From NCBI GenBank assembly GCA_002501805.1, contig DAOI01000003.1, forward strand, positions 31,261-95,260: DNA of 64,000 bases, given 5' to 3'. Positions 11,285-24,602 of the stretch are shown here, piece by piece. Within the stretch, counting starts at the first letter, position 1. The number at the start of each line of letters is the position of its first letter. A model generated the notes under the pieces. It ran no database searches and had not been told where the DNA came from. It was given only the letters and a program-made list of their open reading frames with translations. The position numbers and the translations under genes were made by a program. Origin of the DNA: Euryarchaeota archaeon UBA463 (lineage in GTDB: Archaea; Thermoplasmatota; Poseidoniia; Poseidoniales; Thalassarchaeaceae).

Positions 11285-14200
11285 TCAGGAGTCCAAGTAT
11301 GCCAGCTTGTTAAGCTGTTGAAGATCACCAATTACGCCAAAACCAAACTCTTCTTCTAACGCTCTTGAGACTAGTTTGAAGTCGGAGTCCCTGGTTGCAA
11401 CAACTACACTTCCAACACCCACAGAGAAAGAATCGGCAATAACGGCGGCACTCTTCATTATATCACAATCCCCCTTCTCTGGGTAAATTGACTCCCCCCC
11501 TATCTCTGTTCTTGCGGGGATATCTTCCTTATGCTCCCTCTTATGCTGATCTACTACTCTGAAAATCTCTCTATGATTGGTCAGGAAAACTTCTAGATCT
11601 ATTTCATTGGAGACACTCTCCAGATTATCTCCGTCCCAGTTGTTGAAGATTGAAATTATGGAAGATACTCTCTCTTGTAGAAACTTCTCAGAGACAACCT
11701 CGTCCCATGACGACCTTTCAATATACACGTTTTCAAATAAGTCCAGAACTATATCAGGAGATTTAACACGATTCATGAACTCTCCCATTGCGGCCCTAGG
11801 AATATTCAGTAGCACGCGATCCTCCTTGGCAAGGGACCTCAACTTCCAGTGAAATGCCCTTTGCATCGTCCAATCAAAACTACCAAGGCTATCTGGAGAT
11901 AATTCTCTTAGTAAATCATCCTTGAGGGCATCTATCAGAATATTTGTATCCACCAACACCAAAGGCTTCAGGCCCAAGCTACCAAGGGTCTTTCTTTCCC
12001 TAACTGAAATCTTTCCCGACTGTCTCGTAAACAGATTCCTCTGAGTATTCTGCAGGATTTTCTTCTCCCTACCTTCGAACTCTCCAGATTTCAAAGCTCT
12101 CTCAAACATCCTAAGAGCTCTAATCGGACTCATTTCAGCAACTTGCTCAATAACAGTAACAATTGAAAAGGTATTTTTCTCCTTGGACCTCATTTCAGAA
12201 TCAAATCTCCTCTCAAGATCAGATCTCCTAGATTGCGATGAATGGCTCATCTTCATTATAGCCGCCATTACCCTGCCCTGGAAAGGATCTATTGGGAGTC
12301 CATGCTCAACAGGATACATTTTGATCGATTCCAGAGACTCGACGATAGAGGCACTATCTCCCTCGTCATCCCCGCTGCGCTGCTCGTTGCTTACATGTTC
12401 TATTACTCTCGATGTAGCTCCCAACTGATTCTTTTCTGTATGATCTTTACAGACATTGAGATACATTTTGAATCTGTTTGTTACTGAGGCAGAGAGAGTG
12501 GGATATGCATCAATAAGGGAAACCGCCTCCTTCCATCCTCCTCCATGTGCGAACGAAATCAGAGACCATCGGAGAAATATTGCGGATCTTTCAATATCTA
12601 TTTCCATCAGCTTGGAAGCCGCATCTTTGTACGCCCATGCCGAACCAATCAAATCACCACTCCTCTCTAGTAGAGCGGCCTTAACAATCTGGCATTCGGG
12701 ACTTTTACTATCATTCTCCCTATACCAGGAATCCAATGACTCAATGCCTACAGAGTGTTCGAAAACTAGGTCAGAGGCGAACCTTATTGTTCTCATAGAA
12801 ACGCTATCCGATGAAATCACTGATTCAAGAGAGGAAATAGCTTGGTCCCTACTGGGACCCTCCCCATTTTGGAGATTTACAGCTGCCCTATTGAGAATCA
12901 GTGCAGTTATGACCGCCTCGAAAAGCCTCCTCTCTAATAATGTCAAATCTGCATCGTTAACCGAATTAACTAACTTCTCTATTCTTACTTCCTTAACTAT
13001 TCCATCCCCTTCTGGCCCCAGAGCCATCCTAACCTCTTTCAGAGTCTTCAGTCCTTCAGAATCCAACTTATCATGAACCGCCTCAAGATTGCTGCTTATT
13101 CCATCAAGGAGAGAGATCAGGCCCACACACACCTCAGAAAGTACCCCGTCCCTCTCTGCCTCTTCTATTGATGCAAGAGCTACTCTTCTTGCTTCCAACA
13201 ATTTGGATGAAATCCCTACGGAGTCTTTTGCAGTAATCAAGTGCCACGACAACATGACACGAAATGGATACGCTCTCTGTAACGAAACCTCATCAATTAG
13301 CATGTCAGTTAGCCCCTTTATTTCTGCTGACATGGTAAACGACGATATGATCTCATCAGTATACCTGATTTGATCAATTTTGGAGAGAATACTAGCCGCC
13401 ATTGTCCTAACATGGGATGGAGAATTAGGATGAGAAAGAGCCAATCTGAGACACTCTTCATTGAGTTCTGGCAGGCCAGAGACTATGGAATCAAGTGAAA
13501 TCCCCGTAGAATCACTTGATATCATAGTCAAGCATGTCTTAAGTCCTCTGAGATCATTTACTGCCTTCCCTTCAATGTAGTTTAGAGCAGTAGAGAAATC
13601 TCCAGATTCAACGAGTCCTTCTGATGCTATCCAGGCTAACTTGGATGGAATGCTCCTACCACTCTCTTCGATAATAGAAACGCCCTCCATTGCTAATTCA
13701 AGAGTCATTTCCGTAGGATAAAGATCCACTCTGAGCCATCCTTCTATTTTGATTGCAGAAGATAACTTATCCTCCTCCTTCCTCTCGACAGTCAGGCTCC
13801 AGTCACAATCCTCCTCCTCTCTCAGAGAAATTAGAACACCAAGGTCCCTAGCCACTTCAGAACAGTCTCCTTCTATACTTTCTAACACTCTTCTGGCCCT
13901 ATCAGACTGAGCCGCAGCCAACAATAGGCCCTCAAGTAGCATCGCATCTCCTTCCAAGCCCATTAACGAAGGAGACATCCAATCTTCCCAAAGTTTACGT
14001 CGAGGATTTTTCCTCAAGTCTTTCTCAATCTTCTGAATAACTTTCAATTGTGAAGCTGAAAGTTTGAACGGTGCAACCAAATTCAACCAGCTTCTGAGTG
14101 ATTCGTTATCAGAATAATCTATCCTTGACCCGAATATCCACGGATCTCTTTCTCCAAAACTAGATTCAGGCTCCACAATCGGGAAAAGACCCAGTTCTGC

Positions 14201-14653
14201 CAGAAGGGGGGACTCTCTTGCAAGCCTCTCCCATACAGGATGAACTCCATTCCTACACTCCTGCCTTATCACATCCATCTCTTGATCCCAAGACGCCTTC
14301 CACTCATCTTTACCAAGCCTATTTTTTTGTGCTATGAGTACAGCAAGTCTGTATCCACAGGAATAACCACTGGAGATAGCAGCATCCGGTGAAGCGAGTT
14401 TATCCGAAGTCGTAGTAATCTTTCCACGACCCCCTCTTCTTCCTACTCTACGTGAGCGATTCTTTCTCATATTATCATCAGAGCCGACCATATCAACGGC
14501 CTCCTTACTAGCGGCAATCAAAGCAAGAGCCTTCCAACTCGGATCTTGTAGCAATGACCACGAGGGGGCATTAGTAAGCTTCTTTCTCCGTGTTGCTTCA
14601 TGGTCACCAGACCTGCTTAGTATCTCCAAACAGTCCAGAAGGTACTCCTCCAT
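11285..14653 (-). CDS. Large (1122 aa) protein: ~870-aa helical/repeat N-terminal region of unknown function plus a C-terminal split PIN-domain nuclease
   Basis: The C-terminus has KPLVLVDTNILIDAL (PIN acidic motif 1), then DCDIMKSAAVIADSF and VVVATRDSDF (PIN distal acidic motifs), separated by a ~200-aa insertion. No Walker motifs or other recognizable catalytic signature occur in the N-terminal 850 aa. Confidence 0.6.
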   Translation of the reverse strand: MEEYLLDCLEILSRSGDHEATRRKKLTNAPSWSLLQDPSWKALALIAASKEAVDMVGSDDNMRKNRSRRVGRRGGRGKITTTSDKLASPDAAISSGYSCGYRLAVLIAQKNRLGKDEWKASWDQEMDVIRQECRNGVHPVWERLARESPLLAELGLFPIVEPESSFGERDPWIFGSRIDYSDNESLRSWLNLVAPFKLSASQLKVIQKIEKDLRKNPRRKLWEDWMSPSLMGLEGDAMLLEGLLLAAAQSDRARRVLESIEGDCSEVARDLGVLISLREEEDCDWSLTVERKEEDKLSSAIKIEGWLRVDLYPTEMTLELAMEGVSIIEESGRSIPSKLAWIASEGLVESGDFSTALNYIEGKAVNDLRGLKTCLTMISSDSTGISLDSIVSGLPELNEECLRLALSHPNSPSHVRTMAASILSKIDQIRYTDEIISSFTMSAEIKGLTDMLIDEVSLQRAYPFRVMLSWHLITAKDSVGISSKLLEARRVALASIEEAERDGVLSEVCVGLISLLDGISSNLEAVHDKLDSEGLKTLKEVRMALGPEGDGIVKEVRIEKLVNSVNDADLTLLERRLFEAVITALILNRAAVNLQNGEGPSRDQAISSLESVISSDSVSMRTIRFASDLVFEHSVGIESLDSWYRENDSKSPECQIVKAALLERSGDLIGSAWAYKDAASKLMEIDIERSAIFLRWSLISFAHGGGWKEAVSLIDAYPTLSASVTNRFKMYLNVCKDHTEKNQLGATSRVIEHVSNEQRSGDDEGDSASIVESLESIKMYPVEHGLPIDPFQGRVMAAIMKMSHSSQSRRSDLERRFDSEMRSKEKNTFSIVTVIEQVAEMSPIRALRMFERALKSGEFEGREKKILQNTQRNLFTRQSGKISVRERKTLGSLGLKPLVLVDTNILIDALKDDLLRELSPDSLGSFDWTMQRAFHWKLRSLAKEDRVLLNIPRAAMGEFMNRVKSPDIVLDLFENVYIERSSWDEVVSEKFLQERVSSIISIFNNWDGDNLESVSNEIDLEVFLTNHREIFRVVDQHKREHKEDIPARTEIGGESIYPEKGDCDIMKSAAVIADSFSVGVGSVVVATRDSDFKLVSRALEEEFGFGVIGDLQQLNKLAYLDS

Positions 14654-17204: not shown

Positions 17205-17322
17205 TTACGTGATAGTACGACTAGTGTAGGATAAGCAACGATAATAGTCTATTCGGTTAATTACGTCTAATTCTTCCCCACAACGGAAATCTATTTCCGC
17301 TTTATTGATAGTTGTGCCTTGA

Positions 17323-19299
17323 CTATATTGAAAATGCCAACTCGTCTTCCGGAACAGGGAAAGGAAGGCTCTCTATCTCGTAGTTGTTCACGTTATTATT
17401 TGCCCCCCATGCTCTTGACCAAATCTCCAAGTCCTCAGAATTCAAGACCTTACAAAGCCACTCCAAACCAACAAGTAGCGAACCCCCTCCCTTGCCAACC
17501 AAAGAATCGATTACATTCTCCGAGAACTCAAGATAGTTCACTGAGTTACCCAATACGCAGCCATCAGGGATAACCGCCCAGCGAAGACGCCTATCGTTGT
17601 TTGACCCCAATATGGCTTGGCAAGCAATCCTAGGGCCAGTTGGAGAGTTACTATCCCCATTCCAGGATGAGTGAGATCTCTGAATTGCACCCTCCTCGAC
17701 ATCATTATCAAATGCTGGATGATGAAGGCAAACTTCACCATCCATTACCATGAAGTGAGCATTTCGAATGAAAGGTATTTCTGAACTTCCGTCCGACCAG
17801 TCCCCAATAAATTCTGACCATGCACTCTGGTCAATTTCACCGACTCTAACTCTAACAGAACTTCCATCCGGATTCAGCCAGTTGCCCTCTTCCGACAGCC
17901 TAGGTTTATCTGCTAATCTACCAATCGCCTCGATAACTTTCTTTCTATCAAATGAATCTATTGGCATTCTAGGAACTGCCCAAGTAGCATCAGTCCATGA
18001 AGACCAAGAACCCCTTTCCAAATCTATAGAGGGTGAAGACCTCGAGAGGCCCACCTCAGGAGAAATATCATTCGCGGTTAAAGGTCCGTAGCTTACCATC
18101 TTCTGAGTCTTGCCGCCTACAGCCAGTCCCAACACTGCTACCCCTTGGGTTATGCCAGGGAACACTCTATTTGGATCAGGGAATGACCAAGTAGAGAACC
18201 ACTCATTGCTTTCAACCAATAGCTTTCTCAGGGGCGCACTACTTCTCTCCCTGAGCAGAGAATCTGGAACGATCATTCTAATCCTGCCCTCTTCGCCGAC
18301 GAGTTGCATCGACCTCTCGAGAAATAATCTGTACATATTCACATTTCCACGGAGTGCGGAATATCTCAGACTGCCATCGTAATCTGTTGCATTCCTTAAC
18401 TTACTGGAAAGATCCTTTCGAAGCCGACTCCCTTCTTCATGGCCCCTGAATCTATCTTTTATCCTAATCCAGGGTGGTCTACTAATCAGTAGCTTGGGGC
18501 TCTCATTCCATGGCCACTCGCCGAGAAGTGGATCCCCTTCGAGGACATTGCTTTCAAGAATCATTTCAGCCTCAGCACGACCAATCATCTGACTCCTACT
18601 ATCTCCAGACAGATCCACCAATCCAGCCTTCCCTAGAGTGATGAGTATTCTCCTTCTAGCCGCTTCCACGGCAAGTCCCGAGAAACCCATCAGCTGCAAG
18701 CCCTCTAGCAACCTCAAAGTATCAGTACATCTATTCTCAGCAGAAAGGACTTCTATTCTCTGTGCATGGAGCCTTATCAATTGTGATACAACCAACCCCG
18801 CACCACAACTAGGATCAGCGAAAGGCAGAGGGATTCCAGAGCTAGTCTTCTCCGAACTGTCAGAATAGTCATCTTCTCCTAAGATTGACGAGGCTTCGTT
18901 GTTCAATCTCTGAGCATAGTCTCTGAATGCCGGAGGAATAGCAGACAGAGACAGGGTCGGAGGAGCCTCCTTCTTCTTGCTGCGACCTCCACTGGAAAGC
19001 TCATCTGCCAGAACCGATCCAACAAGCCTAGATGGAGTTGAGTAAGCCCCCTTAGGAGAGCGTCCGTCTTTAACTGCTTCAAATCTTGCCAGTAGCTTTT
19101 CCAAAACCACGCCGGGGTCGGTCAGTAGACCTGCAGGAAGGGTTGGCCACGTGTTGGGCAGAGATGCAGCAATCGGTGTTCCCGATATCACAGAAGACTC
19201 CCAGAAATCCAACCAACATCTGATTTGCATCACTCTATCAGGACAAGCCTGATCTAGCCTTGCATACCAACCTGCTGCTTCACTAACCATTAATCTCAC
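17323..19299 (-). CDS. N6-adenine DNA methyltransferase-like protein (Eco57I/gamma-class motifs) with a non-canonical catalytic motif IV
   Basis: Motif X KGAYSTPSRLVGSVL, motif I PFADPSCGAGLVVSQL, and at the motif IV position LLISRPPWIRI (codons AGT AGA CCA CCC TGG) instead of (N/D/S)PP(Y/F/W). A ~330-aa C-terminal region of unknown function follows. No nuclease domain was recognized. Confidence 0.55.
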   Translation of the reverse strand: MRLMVSEAAGWYARLDQACPDRVMQIRCWLDFWESSVISGTPIAASLPNTWPTLPAGLLTDPGVVLEKLLARFEAVKDGRSPKGAYSTPSRLVGSVLADELSSGGRSKKKEAPPTLSLSAIPPAFRDYAQRLNNEASSILGEDDYSDSSEKTSSGIPLPFADPSCGAGLVVSQLIRLHAQRIEVLSAENRCTDTLRLLEGLQLMGFSGLAVEAARRRILITLGKAGLVDLSGDSRSQMIGRAEAEMILESNVLEGDPLLGEWPWNESPKLLISRPPWIRIKDRFRGHEEGSRLRKDLSSKLRNATDYDGSLRYSALRGNVNMYRLFLERSMQLVGEEGRIRMIVPDSLLRERSSAPLRKLLVESNEWFSTWSFPDPNRVFPGITQGVAVLGLAVGGKTQKMVSYGPLTANDISPEVGLSRSSPSIDLERGSWSSWTDATWAVPRMPIDSFDRKKVIEAIGRLADKPRLSEEGNWLNPDGSSVRVRVGEIDQSAWSEFIGDWSDGSSEIPFIRNAHFMVMDGEVCLHHPAFDNDVEEGAIQRSHSSWNGDSNSPTGPRIACQAILGSNNDRRLRWAVIPDGCVLGNSVNYLEFSENVIDSLVGKGGGSLLVGLEWLCKVLNSEDLEIWSRAWGANNNVNNYEIESLPFPVPEDELAFSI

Positions 19300-19354
19300 T
19301 CTAGGGAAATCATCAACCTGTTTTGAAAGGTTGTATATTTGTTAAGAGAATTGC

Positions 19355-19963
19355 TTATCCACTGAGAGAGAAGGAGTCCTCTTCAATCTCGATAATAAGC
19401 TCGCTCTGAAGGAGCCAAGTTATCGCTTCGTCAAGATCATCCACTCTAATGCCGAGAGGGATAAGGTTGCCCATCAAAGAGTCGAAATGGACGGGAGCTG
19501 GTCCTTCTAGTGAGCGGAGCTCTAGTAATCCTAGGACATGCTCTGAAACAATAGCCAGCAACGGATCGTCTCCTACATCTAAAGATCCGAAATGGACCGC
19601 AGCCTCCCCTTCCTGACTCGTTTCAGAATCTTTTTCTTTCGACTTACTGCTTATTTCGTAAATATCAAATAGGTTTTTTTGATGAGGATCCTCAATCCCC
19701 GTTCCAACCACTTCACGCTGCCTTTTCAGCCTCTTTACGAGAGTCTCTATTCTGTGAAGACGTTGCTCTAAACGCAACCTCTCTCTTCCCAAGTGACTCT
19801 CGACTAACTCAAGCTCTTCCAACGCTCTTTCGTCCAGCCACGAAGACAAATCCCAAGAAGGATCCAACCTCAGCATGGTCTCCCAGAGCCTAGCCACAGA
19901 TTCTGGGAGTGTCCTAACGTCTATCCGTGGACTTTCCCTACCATCTTCGGGCGCGCGCTCCAT
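19355..19963 (-). CDS. Hypothetical protein with a central coiled-coil, upstream of and co-oriented with the MTase-like gene
   Basis: 202 aa with a heptad-like stretch LEQRLHRIETLVKRLKRQ. It lies 55 bp upstream of the MTase-like ORF on the same strand. No family recognized. Confidence 0.4.
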   Translation of the reverse strand: MERAPEDGRESPRIDVRTLPESVARLWETMLRLDPSWDLSSWLDERALEELELVESHLGRERLRLEQRLHRIETLVKRLKRQREVVGTGIEDPHQKNLFDIYEISSKSKEKDSETSQEGEAAVHFGSLDVGDDPLLAIVSEHVLGLLELRSLEGPAPVHFDSLMGNLIPLGIRVDDLDEAITWLLQSELIIEIEEDSFSLSG

Positions 19964-23254: not shown

Positions 23255-23327
23255 CCCGTCTTTTCAGCTCAACTATTGTTAATCGGATTCAAAAACAATC
23301 ATGTGCATCGTGCGTGCCCGATTAAGC

Positions 23328-24602
23328 ATGAGCGACTCGATTCCACCCTCAGATACGGCCGAATCAGTTACTGCAGGCCATCCCGACAAGCTTTGTGATG
23401 CTATCTCAGACTCCATTCTAGATGCATGTCTAAGGATCGATCCTAATGCCCGAGTTGCCGTTGAAACCATGGTTAAGGGAACCGAAGGAGAAGCGATAAT
23501 AGTTCTCGCGGGAGAGGTCAGTCTCAATGGACAGCCGCCAAACTATGAAGAAATTGCTCGTCTTACAGCTTCATCGATTGGATATACTGACAGTAAGATC
23601 GGGATGGATGCTTCATCAAACGATAGCTGTCAAGTGCATACTCACATAACAACCCAGTCCCAATTCATCAGCCAAGGGGTCGATGGCGATATTGAGACAC
23701 AGGGAGCAGGCGACCAGGGAGTAATGTTCGGGTACGCGTGCACGGAGACAGAGGGAACCGCAGAGCTCAGAGGCAGGTTCTTCCCACTCTCAGCAGCTCT
23801 TGCGCAAAGACTAACTAGGCGGTTGGAGATAGTACATGATGAGGGTATCATACCATGGGTTAGGCCCGATGGAAAGAGCCAGGTTACAGTACAACTAACT
23901 GATGATAAACAGTCAGTAAGTAGGGTATCTACGATAGTTATTGCATCACAGCACTCTCCGAAAGCAGGACCAAACTGGCCCGCCGAGGACGATTTATCAG
24001 ATGATGAAAGATGTCAGTATATCGAGCAGCAGATTAGGAAGCATGTGGTCGAGCACGCTATTCCTCCAAGTCTGTTAGACAATCCTGAGGTAATAGTCAA
24101 TGGAACGGGATCATTCCCTGATCCCGGGGGTCCCTACGCAGATGCCGGTCTGACAGGCAGGAAAATTATCGTGGACACATATGGCGGAGGAAGACATGGT
24201 GGTGGGGCATTCAGTGGAAAGGATCCATCGAAGGTAGACAGATCGGCCGCATATTATGCTAGGTGGGTTGCTAAGCATGTGGTCGCAGCTGGACTGGCAG
24301 AAAGGTGCGAGATTCAGGTAGCCTATGCGATTGGTAAAGCTAGCCCAGTCGGATTCAGGGTGGAAACCTTTGGAACAACTAACAGTGACTTGGGTAAAAA
24401 TCCAGACTCCACAATCTCCAGGTTGATATTGGAGAACTTTGATTGGAGGCCAGCTGCTATGATTAGAGATCTCAATCTGAAGAGGCCAATCTACAGTTCT
24501 ACTGCATCTGGTGGGCACTTTGGAAGAACTCCAACCGAAGAAGGATTATTCCCATGGGAAAGATTAGATCAGTCGAGATTAGACTCACTTAGAAGTCACT
24601 AA
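23328..24602 (+). CDS. metK: S-adenosylmethionine synthetase, bacterial/eukaryotic type
   Basis: ESVTAGHPDKLCDAISDSILDA, GAGDQGVMFGYA, GGGAFSGKDPSKVDRSAAYYARWVAK. This is not the archaeal MAT family. The start was set at the ATG at 23328; the track ORF starts at 23301. Confidence 0.9.
   Translation: MSDSIPPSDTAESVTAGHPDKLCDAISDSILDACLRIDPNARVAVETMVKGTEGEAIIVLAGEVSLNGQPPNYEEIARLTASSIGYTDSKIGMDASSNDSCQVHTHITTQSQFISQGVDGDIETQGAGDQGVMFGYACTETEGTAELRGRFFPLSAALAQRLTRRLEIVHDEGIIPWVRPDGKSQVTVQLTDDKQSVSRVSTIVIASQHSPKAGPNWPAEDDLSDDERCQYIEQQIRKHVVEHAIPPSLLDNPEVIVNGTGSFPDPGGPYADAGLTGRKIIVDTYGGGRHGGGAFSGKDPSKVDRSAAYYARWVAKHVVAAGLAERCEIQVAYAIGKASPVGFRVETFGTTNSDLGKNPDSTISRLILENFDWRPAAMIRDLNLKRPIYSSTASGGHFGRTPTEEGLFPWERLDQSRLDSLRSH

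Follow-up and report, generated by a model that had tools for sequence, protein, structure and literature searches.

The 64,000-nucleotide (nt) stretch of Euryarchaeota archaeon UBA463 (Thalassarchaeaceae; contig DAOI01000003.1) that we call the window carries a DNA methylase-like gene whose product departs at motif IV from the amino-methyltransferases that it resembles. The canonical form of this motif, (D/N/S)-P-P-(Y/F/W), is replaced by R-P-P-W in the window protein and is preserved in its NPPW orthologues. Alignments and structural models identify the protein as a gamma-class, Eco57I/TaqI-type DNA amino-methyltransferase homologue, and the Arg is a selected, clade-wide substitute for the catalytic Asn; the protein may work unlike every characterised enzyme of its class. 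What is new in this analysis is that the gene is a core, syntenic gene of Marine Group II, with Asn as the ancestral residue, a clade-wide Arg accompanied by the substitution T315A, and a C-terminus of the TaqI_C type.

The placement of motif IV was settled by a profile-profile alignment. When the family was aligned with its NPPY relatives, hhalign returned a probability of 100% (E 3.3e-49) for 481 columns between motif X and the C-terminus (residue 651), and R274 was paired with the invariant Asn of these relatives such that RPPW falls on NPPY (residues are numbered throughout on the 658-amino acid (aa) open reading frame (ORF), in which the start of the homologues is M4). In an exhaustive profile search, just two full-length family clusters at 50% identity were followed by a gap, and beyond the gap came ordinary Eco57I + TaqI_C methyltransferases of 700-750 aa with NPPY (P0286 and others). 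No second match to [DNSRKH]PP[YFWH] is present in the methylase-like ORF. Among the window ORFs with 100 aa or more, a single other match turned up, RPPY, and the 113-aa reading frame that holds it is probably not a genuine gene. A canonical motif IV elsewhere in the protein, the observation that the original prediction had singled out as fatal to its own idea of an altered enzyme, is thus ruled out, and RPPW stands at the true motif IV, as that prediction had proposed.

The Arg is widespread in the family. Among the proteins listed in the first and the representative searches, the motif IV residue was Arg in 104, Asn in 23, Lys in one (P0241) and His in one (the fragment P0260). In the 82 species-level loci it was Arg in 63 and Asn in 19. 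The Arg codons of the species loci are AGA (29), AGG (22), CGC (4), CGA (3), CGG (2) and CGT (2). Because the residue recurs in 63 species and under six codons, a point error, which the original prediction had left open, is excluded and the Arg is seen to be under selection; this pattern indicates that it has been kept by purifying selection since its origin.

Neighbour-joining trees rooted on the NPPY relatives divide the family into two clades, one wholly NPPW and the other made up of an ICNPPW group (MGIIb-O1) together with all Arg-type members. Starting from a basal member, a third search brought in another 104 members, all 104 of them NPPW, including sequences named Candidatus Poseidonia, Poseidoniaceae and Thalassarchaeaceae. 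Since the outgroup has NPPY and the members found with the basal query are NPPW without exception, Asn (as NPPW) is indicated to be the ancestral residue, kept in Poseidoniaceae and in part of Thalassarchaeaceae, and, according to the trees, Asn gave way to Arg on one or two occasions within a large clade of Thalassarchaeaceae to which the window organism belongs. The closeness of AGA to a Ser codon, to which attention had been drawn, is therefore beside the point, as the ancestral codon would be AAY, two steps away. The description of the gene as a natural, catalytically altered paralog survives in part: the alteration is natural, being found in 63 species, whereas the gene is no paralog and corresponds to a single-copy, syntenic orthologue of the NPPW genes.

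A column comparison of 103 Arg-type with 122 Asn-type sequences revealed that only positions 274 (Arg/Asn) and 315 (Ala/Thr) separate all members of one type from all members of the other. Position 315 sits in RFS[A/T]L-GNVNLY and corresponds to T135 of M.TaqI, 11 residues before F146, which contacts S-adenosylmethionine (AdoMet); the pattern indicates that T315A arose together with the change from Asn to Arg. Within the Arg type, D162, G168, P275, P276, W277, N319, N321, Y323 and P345 are 100% conserved, 207 of the 655 columns (~32%) are at least 98% conserved, and the target-recognition domain is conserved equally well as in the NPPW members. One Arg subclade (P0060-P0120; L058-L083) has fixed further changes, among them T88P in motif X, F380L and P381F in motif VIII, and D346S, along with Q491R, R573V, N588S and W614F in the recognition domain, all of them at positions invariant in all NPPW members. 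The motif VIII Phe is displaced by one position (LFG) in this subclade and is kept in the window lineage. We also considered D205G in motif II, where an acidic residue closing strand beta-2 is expected to bind the ribose of AdoMet, as an added sign of decay and dropped it, since position 205 varies across the family: the window protein has Gly there, most relatives have Asp, and R, K, E, A, N, T or Q occur even among NPPW members. The nearby Q202 is invariant.

By profile scores, the similarity of the protein to amino-methyltransferases is far above chance. Pfam Eco57I (PF07669) matches with 31 bits against a cut-off of 25.3, over the C-terminal half of the model only (the relatives P0241 and P0242 match the whole model), NCBIfam TIGR02987 matches residues 555-653 at E 9e-21, and PADLOC MTase_II matches residues 269-653 at E 1.5e-22. 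This generic model is the best of the PADLOC matches, the weaker ones being Type IIG and Type I methyltransferase models. In a hidden Markov model (HMM) alignment, the family profile pairs residues 309-362 with residues 130-183 of M.TaqI; a single-sequence phmmer search of the catalytic domain against the PDB gave nothing useful. The AlphaFold2 (AF2) model of the protein, with a mean predicted local distance difference test score (pLDDT) of 78 and a predicted template modelling score (pTM) of 0.74, has CamA, M.BseCI, PglX/BrxX and M.TaqI as its top Foldseek matches (E 1e-15 to 1e-10). The match to CamA has an E of 1e-15 over about 550-640 columns, and the CamA and M.BseCI alignments, of about 550-650 columns, take in both domains. 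Pfam, PADLOC, hhalign and Foldseek thus agree with the gamma-class, Eco57I-type assignment made at the outset.

The order of the motifs is canonical (X, I, III-VIII, followed by a C-terminal target-recognition domain) according to the family alignments, hhalign and the fold match, and the motifs X and I that had been recognised by eye are both present and agree with the consensus patterns G-x-x-x-T-P and D/E-P-x-x-G-x-G, respectively (Table 1). In motif X, G84 and P89 are invariant and T88 is nearly so in the family alignments (A1/A2); in motif I, D162 and G168 are essentially invariant over Arg-type and Asn-type members; and D256 of motif III is kept in 99% of the Arg type and 98% of the Asn type. 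The motif IV stretch LLISRPPWIRIKDRF lies 104 residues past motif I. The hhalign alignment to the NPPY outgroup begins at residue 80 and leaves the N-terminal helical region unaligned. Also family-specific is an acidic insert that separates motif X from motif I and is modelled by AF2 with low confidence. As to the C-terminal half, which had been described as unassigned and possibly an effector region, the TIGR02987 match at residues 555-653, the hhalign coverage and the fold match identify it as a diverged TaqI_C-type target-recognition domain and no effector; the Pfam TaqI_C model (PF12950) gives no direct match in the window protein at E<=1.

The 658-aa ORF itself is confirmed at 17323..19299 on the minus strand, with a GTG start at 19299. 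Because the homologues open with MVSEA..., equivalent to M4 of the window ORF, the ATG at 19290 is probably the start of the methylase-like gene, giving 655 aa. With this start the gap to the upstream 202-aa gene is 64 nt instead of the 55 bp first reported, and the Arg codon lies at 18480..18478 instead of about 18461-18463. The protein is 97% identical to P0001 and to the copy in locus L004. At 24 nt past the methylase stop there is a perfect 6-bp hairpin, CGGAAA-TAGA-TTTCCG (17284-17299, minus strand), with no T-run after it.

Table 1. Positions of the methylase-like gene, its motifs and associated features (window coordinates, except where a locus is named).
Feature	Position	Strand	Remarks
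Methylase-like coding sequence	17323..19290	-	655 aa from ATG 19290; 658 aa from GTG 19299; intact, full-length
N-terminal helical region, residues 4-80 (GWYARLD...)	19060..19290	-	Poseidoniales-family only; AF2 helices
Motif X, GAYSTPSRLV, residues 84-93	19021..19050	-	Pairs with G-FYTP of outgroup
Motif I, FADPSCGAGLV, residues 160-170, AdoMet-binding loop	18790..18822	-	Pairs with outgroup DPACGSG
Motif III Asp, D256 (in GDPL)	18532..18534	-	Pairs with outgroup GDAL
Motif IV, S-R-P-P-W, residues 273-277	18469..18483	-	AGT AGA CCA CCC TGG; Arg codon AGA 18478-18480
Motifs V-VI region, residues 309-362	18214..18375	-	Includes RYSALRGNVNMYRLFLE and co-varying A315; HMM alignment to M.TaqI 130-183
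Motif VIII Phe, F380 (in RVFPG)	18160..18162	-	Invariant in alignment A2 and all Asn-type members
TaqI_C-type target-recognition domain, residues ~400-655	17323..18102	-	NCBIfam, hhalign, Foldseek
Intergenic block ACAACCTTTCAAA, TATA-like box	19322..19334	-	Exact match in window
202-aa coiled-coil / winged-helix coding sequence	19355..19963	-	ORF; 907 homologues
Winged helix of 202-aa protein, residues 134-200	19364..19564	-	AF2 secondary structure
DPHQKNLFDIY, residues 92-102, disordered linker of 202-aa protein	19658..19690	-	pLDDT <50; PIP-box-like
Long helix / coiled coil of 202-aa protein, residues 39-88	19700..19849	-	AF2, pLDDT about 80; highly conserved
TerB/DUF533-like regions	L085:3019-3971, L086:3689-4917, L087:3992-4887, L088:3481-4842		Precede NPPW methylase gene

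As to function, the reading to which we lean, with slightly less than even confidence, is that the Arg form is mainly an AdoMet-dependent, site-specific DNA-binding and base-flipping regulator in which methyl transfer is lost or weak. Judging from the conserved motifs, the Arg form would most likely still bind AdoMet; its conserved recognition domain would select a fixed DNA sequence, a base would be flipped into the pocket, and N6-methyl transfer would be abolished or strongly reduced. Binding of AdoMet and DNA and base flipping are likely because motifs X, I, III and PPW are essentially invariant in the Arg clade and because the motif VIII Phe is kept in the window lineage, and methyl transfer is expected to be lost or reduced because Arg cannot accept a hydrogen bond from the N6 amino group of adenine. 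In such enzymes the exocyclic amine donates a hydrogen bond to the D, N or S side chain of motif IV, and mutation of this residue abolishes activity in EcoKI, EcoRV, Dam and METTL3. As far as we know, the first position of motif IV is D, N or S in all amino-methyltransferases that have been characterised. A full-text literature search found no methyltransferase of the RPPW, RPPY, RPPF, KPPW or KPPY type and no paper describing the methylase-like family, and in the Poseidoniales comparative and transcriptome papers no mention of the gene was found. In the structure of CamA, the flipped adenine is stacked between aromatics, with the side chain of Asn165 directed to N1 and the carbonyl of Pro166 to N6 (PMC8187626), and the catalytic-site mutant N165A did not complement a camA deletion (bioRxiv 10.1101/398891).

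Several considerations pull away from this regulatory reading. The family is known here from sequence and models, and the Arg form may be active; intact AdoMet motifs would suit a working enzyme better than a dead one. The amide of the CamA Asn donates a hydrogen bond to adenine N1 and, by analogy, an Arg could do likewise. T315A resembles the accommodation of a pocket that is still in use. The motif X and VIII changes of the Arg subclade described above could reflect either relaxed constraint or retuning, and the neighbour-joining trees disagree on whether the Arg had one origin or two.

The strongest alternative, which we consider doubtful and yet a serious contender, is that the Arg form is a fully working N6-adenine methyltransferase with a non-canonical motif IV that sets the same mark as its NPPW orthologues. 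The carbonyl of Pro275 would then hold N6 while the Arg guanidinium would form a hydrogen bond with adenine N1 or N7, a division of labour resembling that in CamA, where the Asn side chain touches N1 and the Pro carbonyl N6. In its favour, the AdoMet motifs, PPW and, in the window lineage, the motif VIII Phe have been kept under strong selection over deep divergence, the Arg comes with just one other change, T315A, which looks compensatory, and the target-recognition domain has lost nothing of the conservation that it shows in the NPPW members. Activity would also be in line with the GATC N6-methyladenine (m6A) reported in the available part of a marine metaepigenomic study, which describes this mark clade-wide across archaeal metagenome-assembled genomes (MAGs), at 19-99% modified and with two Euryarchaeota MAGs excepted, finds non-GATC motifs to be sporadic and, in that part, leaves the responsible enzyme unnamed (PMC8919816). 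The failure of CamA N165A to complement and the empty full-text search for methyltransferases with a basic residue at this position argue in the opposite direction. So do the D, N or S known from all characterised amino-methyltransferases, the mutation of which abolishes activity in several of them, and the inability of Arg to accept the N6 hydrogen bond.

A changed chemistry or substrate seems distinctly improbable to us. The Arg form would here act on another atom or base offering a hydrogen-bond acceptor (e.g., guanine O6/N7 or a ring nitrogen) or on something other than DNA, a notion that suits a conserved AdoMet site and aromatic pocket furnished with a donor-type side chain (Arg; Lys in P0241; His in P0260), and to which the Arg subclade would also lend itself, having fixed additional substitutions in motif X, motif VIII and the recognition domain. 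However, only two columns distinguish the types and the shift from Asn to Arg left the recognition domain as it was, which speaks against a new substrate, and the fold and the TaqI_C domain indicate double-stranded DNA as the target; we know of no precedent for a changed chemistry in such an enzyme. The idea that AGA arose through faulty sequencing or assembly, or that the gene is what remains of a restriction-modification (R-M) or BREX system in decay, has next to no likelihood: AGA is one substitution from AGC or AGT and NCBI names one family member BREX PglX, but the Arg occurs in 63 species genomes and more than 100 protein clusters under six codons, the ORF is intact and full-length with the many conserved columns given above, housekeeping synteny surrounds it in every locus, and PADLOC finds only the methyltransferase itself.

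The distribution of the gene points to a role in the core genome. In a species scan with one genome per GTDB species, relatives were encoded in at least 326 species genomes, and the best 80 of these 326 are all Poseidoniales (Marine Group II). For the best 120 homologues listed, identity is 54% or higher across practically the full length, and the homologues of the first search that carry a source name come from Marine Group II/Thermoplasmatota MAGs. Among the best relatives, the order Iso_dh (divergent), 202-aa gene, methylase-like gene, NTPase_1 is found in every sufficiently long locus; in four distant NPPW relatives, NTPase_1 lies directly downstream in 4/4, and GCV_H and RNase_H come next in 2/4. 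The neighbours in the window are NTPase_1, GCV_H, RNase H, a DUF4079 membrane protein, an isopropylmalate/isocitrate dehydrogenase, phosphopantothenate synthetase (PPS_PS), QRPTase and MetK. No nuclease, specificity subunit or helicase is among them, as had been noted originally, and no nuclease or specificity subunit was found in the related loci examined. The methylase-like gene is single-copy in the window, with no active paralogue seen there. The gene tree parts the sequences named Poseidoniaceae from the Thalassarchaeaceae clade of the window, with one Thalassarchaeaceae sequence grouping with Poseidoniaceae. Together, tree and synteny identify the gene as a vertically inherited core orphan of Marine Group II and not a defence component, comparable to Dam, CcrM and CamA since it has no nuclease partner. 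A defence, R-M or BREX context was considered and ruled out, given that PADLOC flags methyltransferase models only and that the neighbours are housekeeping genes.

Among known systems, CamA of Clostridioides difficile (PDB 7LNI and others) is the closest fold match over both domains. It resembles the window protein in having a catalytic domain followed by a target-recognition domain, in being an orphan and in occurring throughout one lineage. It differs in that the two share about 12% identity, in its NPPY, with Asn165 on the flipped adenine, in place of RPPW, in being bacterial with a known target (CAAAAA), and in lacking the extra N-terminal helical region and the 60-aa insert between motifs X and I. 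M.TaqI, M.BseCI and the Eco57I/TaqI_C methyltransferases have the same motif order as the window protein, and the nearest relatives outside Poseidoniales (P0286 etc.) have the Eco57I + TaqI_C architecture but NPPY instead of RPPW. The M.TaqI-type relatives are R-M components or stand in mobile contexts (P0286 adjoins a C5-methylase gene), whereas the window gene belongs to the chromosomal core.

A different kind of precedent is given by METTL14 (EPPL), the ciliate MTA9 and Dnmt3L, in which an essential residue is gone and the motif is kept by selection, a pattern that may point to nucleic-acid binding in place of catalysis. These proteins are of other classes (MT-A70, C5), have lost AdoMet binding and serve as partners of an active paralogue; the window protein, unlike them, has lost the catalytic Asn with motifs X, I and III intact. 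PglX, too, is an Eco57I-type gamma-class adenine methyltransferase and its structures are among the Foldseek matches, but it has about 1200 aa and is accompanied by brxA/B/C, pglZ and brxL, as against 655 aa here. No BREX genes were found in the window neighbourhood or in the related loci examined, and no BREX model was among the PADLOC matches. The family member P0451 (Candidatus Poseidonia sp.) is labelled at NCBI as 'BREX-1 system adenine-specific DNA-methyltransferase PglX', an annotation that is probably wrong.

The upstream ORF for a 202-aa coiled-coil protein is real, and its product is without family in Pfam, NCBIfam and PADLOC, in agreement with the original prediction. It has 907 homologues, of which the top 120 show identities of 66% or more, and those named by source are from marine Euryarchaeota/Thermoplasmatota MAGs. 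The gene adjoins the methylase gene in 82/82 loci of the window's nearest relatives, across which the protein is 51-98% identical. According to its AF2 model, the protein consists of a short helix, a 50-residue helix, a disordered acidic linker (residues 89-133) and a C-terminal winged helix. The winged helix finds its best Foldseek match, a weak one, in the winged helix by which P. abyssi Rpa2 docks to the replisome (E 1.8e-3, root-mean-square deviation 1.0 A, 24% identity). The linker carries a nearly invariant motif, DPxQxNLFD[VI][YF], in which D92, P93, Q95, N97, L98, F99 and D100 are each conserved at 95% or more in the 82 species. The consensus of the PCNA-interacting protein (PIP) box is Q-x-x-[ILM]-x-x-aromatic-aromatic, and a clamp-binding variant reads QLTLF (PMC3504372); by this likeness the linker motif (peptide DPHQKNLFDIYE) is a candidate PCNA- or clamp-tethering site, which we offer as a lead only.

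The distant NPPW relatives of clade B have no 202-aa gene upstream and have TerB/DUF533-like genes there instead. L085-L087 each have two such genes, paralogous and of ~140 aa, and L088 has a single longer one; the genomes range from 43 to 71% GC. The 202-aa protein was considered as a diverged TerB/DUF533-like homologue and rejected, as BLAST gave an E of 0.009 but hhalign a probability of 1.2%. A functional link between the methylase-like protein and the 202-aa protein is possible; the adjacency of their genes is no strong sign of it, because the whole neighbourhood is syntenic and the clade-B relatives lack the upstream gene. A fuller scenario, which we hold to be unlikely, would have a core methyltransferase turned, by the one selected exchange of Asn for Arg (with T315A), into an AdoMet-sensing, base-flipping DNA reader or regulator, or into an enzyme of altered chemistry, and paired with a 202-aa protein that tethers it to PCNA at replication forks.

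The intergenic region between the two genes contains a conserved block, CAACC..TTCAAAGAAG..TGTCG, found in L001-L083, and in almost all of the 82 species the methylase ATG is preceded, at a distance of 33-39 nt, by TTCAAA or TTGAAA (the distance is 27 nt in five loci, for which the script took another ATG, and L016 reads TTCAAT). Given this conserved TATA-like box between the genes, the methylase-like gene probably has its own promoter, and the co-transcription that had been assumed is no more than a possibility. Other genes of the window are preceded by similar A/T boxes; ACAACCNTTCAAA, considered as a generic promoter motif, shows no enrichment in the window, with 6 matches where 5.3 would be expected. 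We also considered a conserved RNA hairpin in the intergenic region and set it aside, as complementary flanks (AACCT/AGGTT, CCC/GGG, CTCC/GGAG) occur in about half of the species and a position-fixed TATA-like box fits better.

Poseidoniales are uncultured and among the most abundant planktonic archaea, and an orphan conserved across them could be what sets their principal DNA mark, whether epigenetic or linked to replication. The natural split between Asn and Arg amounts to an evolutionary experiment on the supposedly indispensable first residue of (D/N/S)PP(Y/F/W). Should the Arg form be active, genome annotation and REBASE-style prediction would be relying on too narrow a definition of motif IV; should it be inactive, it would be a rare case of a prokaryotic methyltransferase made into a DNA-binding protein with its AdoMet site retained. 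Either outcome is testable with existing long-read marine metagenomes.

Some further observations concern the loci and the rest of the window. The family members in L085 and L088 come from genomes with 70-71% GC, one of them on a 3.0-Mb contig, the other loci measured having 43-55% and the window 43-50%; their source may be an undescribed lineage related to Poseidoniales. No Rfam family at gathering score and no tRNA gene was found in the 64-kb window. At 11285-14653 on the minus strand there is a 1122-aa ORF without a Pfam, NCBIfam or PADLOC family, the C-terminal ~150 aa of which resemble a PIN domain by eye (LVLVDTNILIDAL...). At a distance of 3.3 kb from the methylase-like gene, the window also encodes an S-adenosylmethionine synthetase (23301-24602, plus strand). 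It matches the N, M and C models of Pfam S-AdoMet_synt, and we take it to be of the bacterial/eukaryotic MetK type, although the host is archaeal. In L001, a MetK gene is found ~7 kb upstream of the methylase gene.

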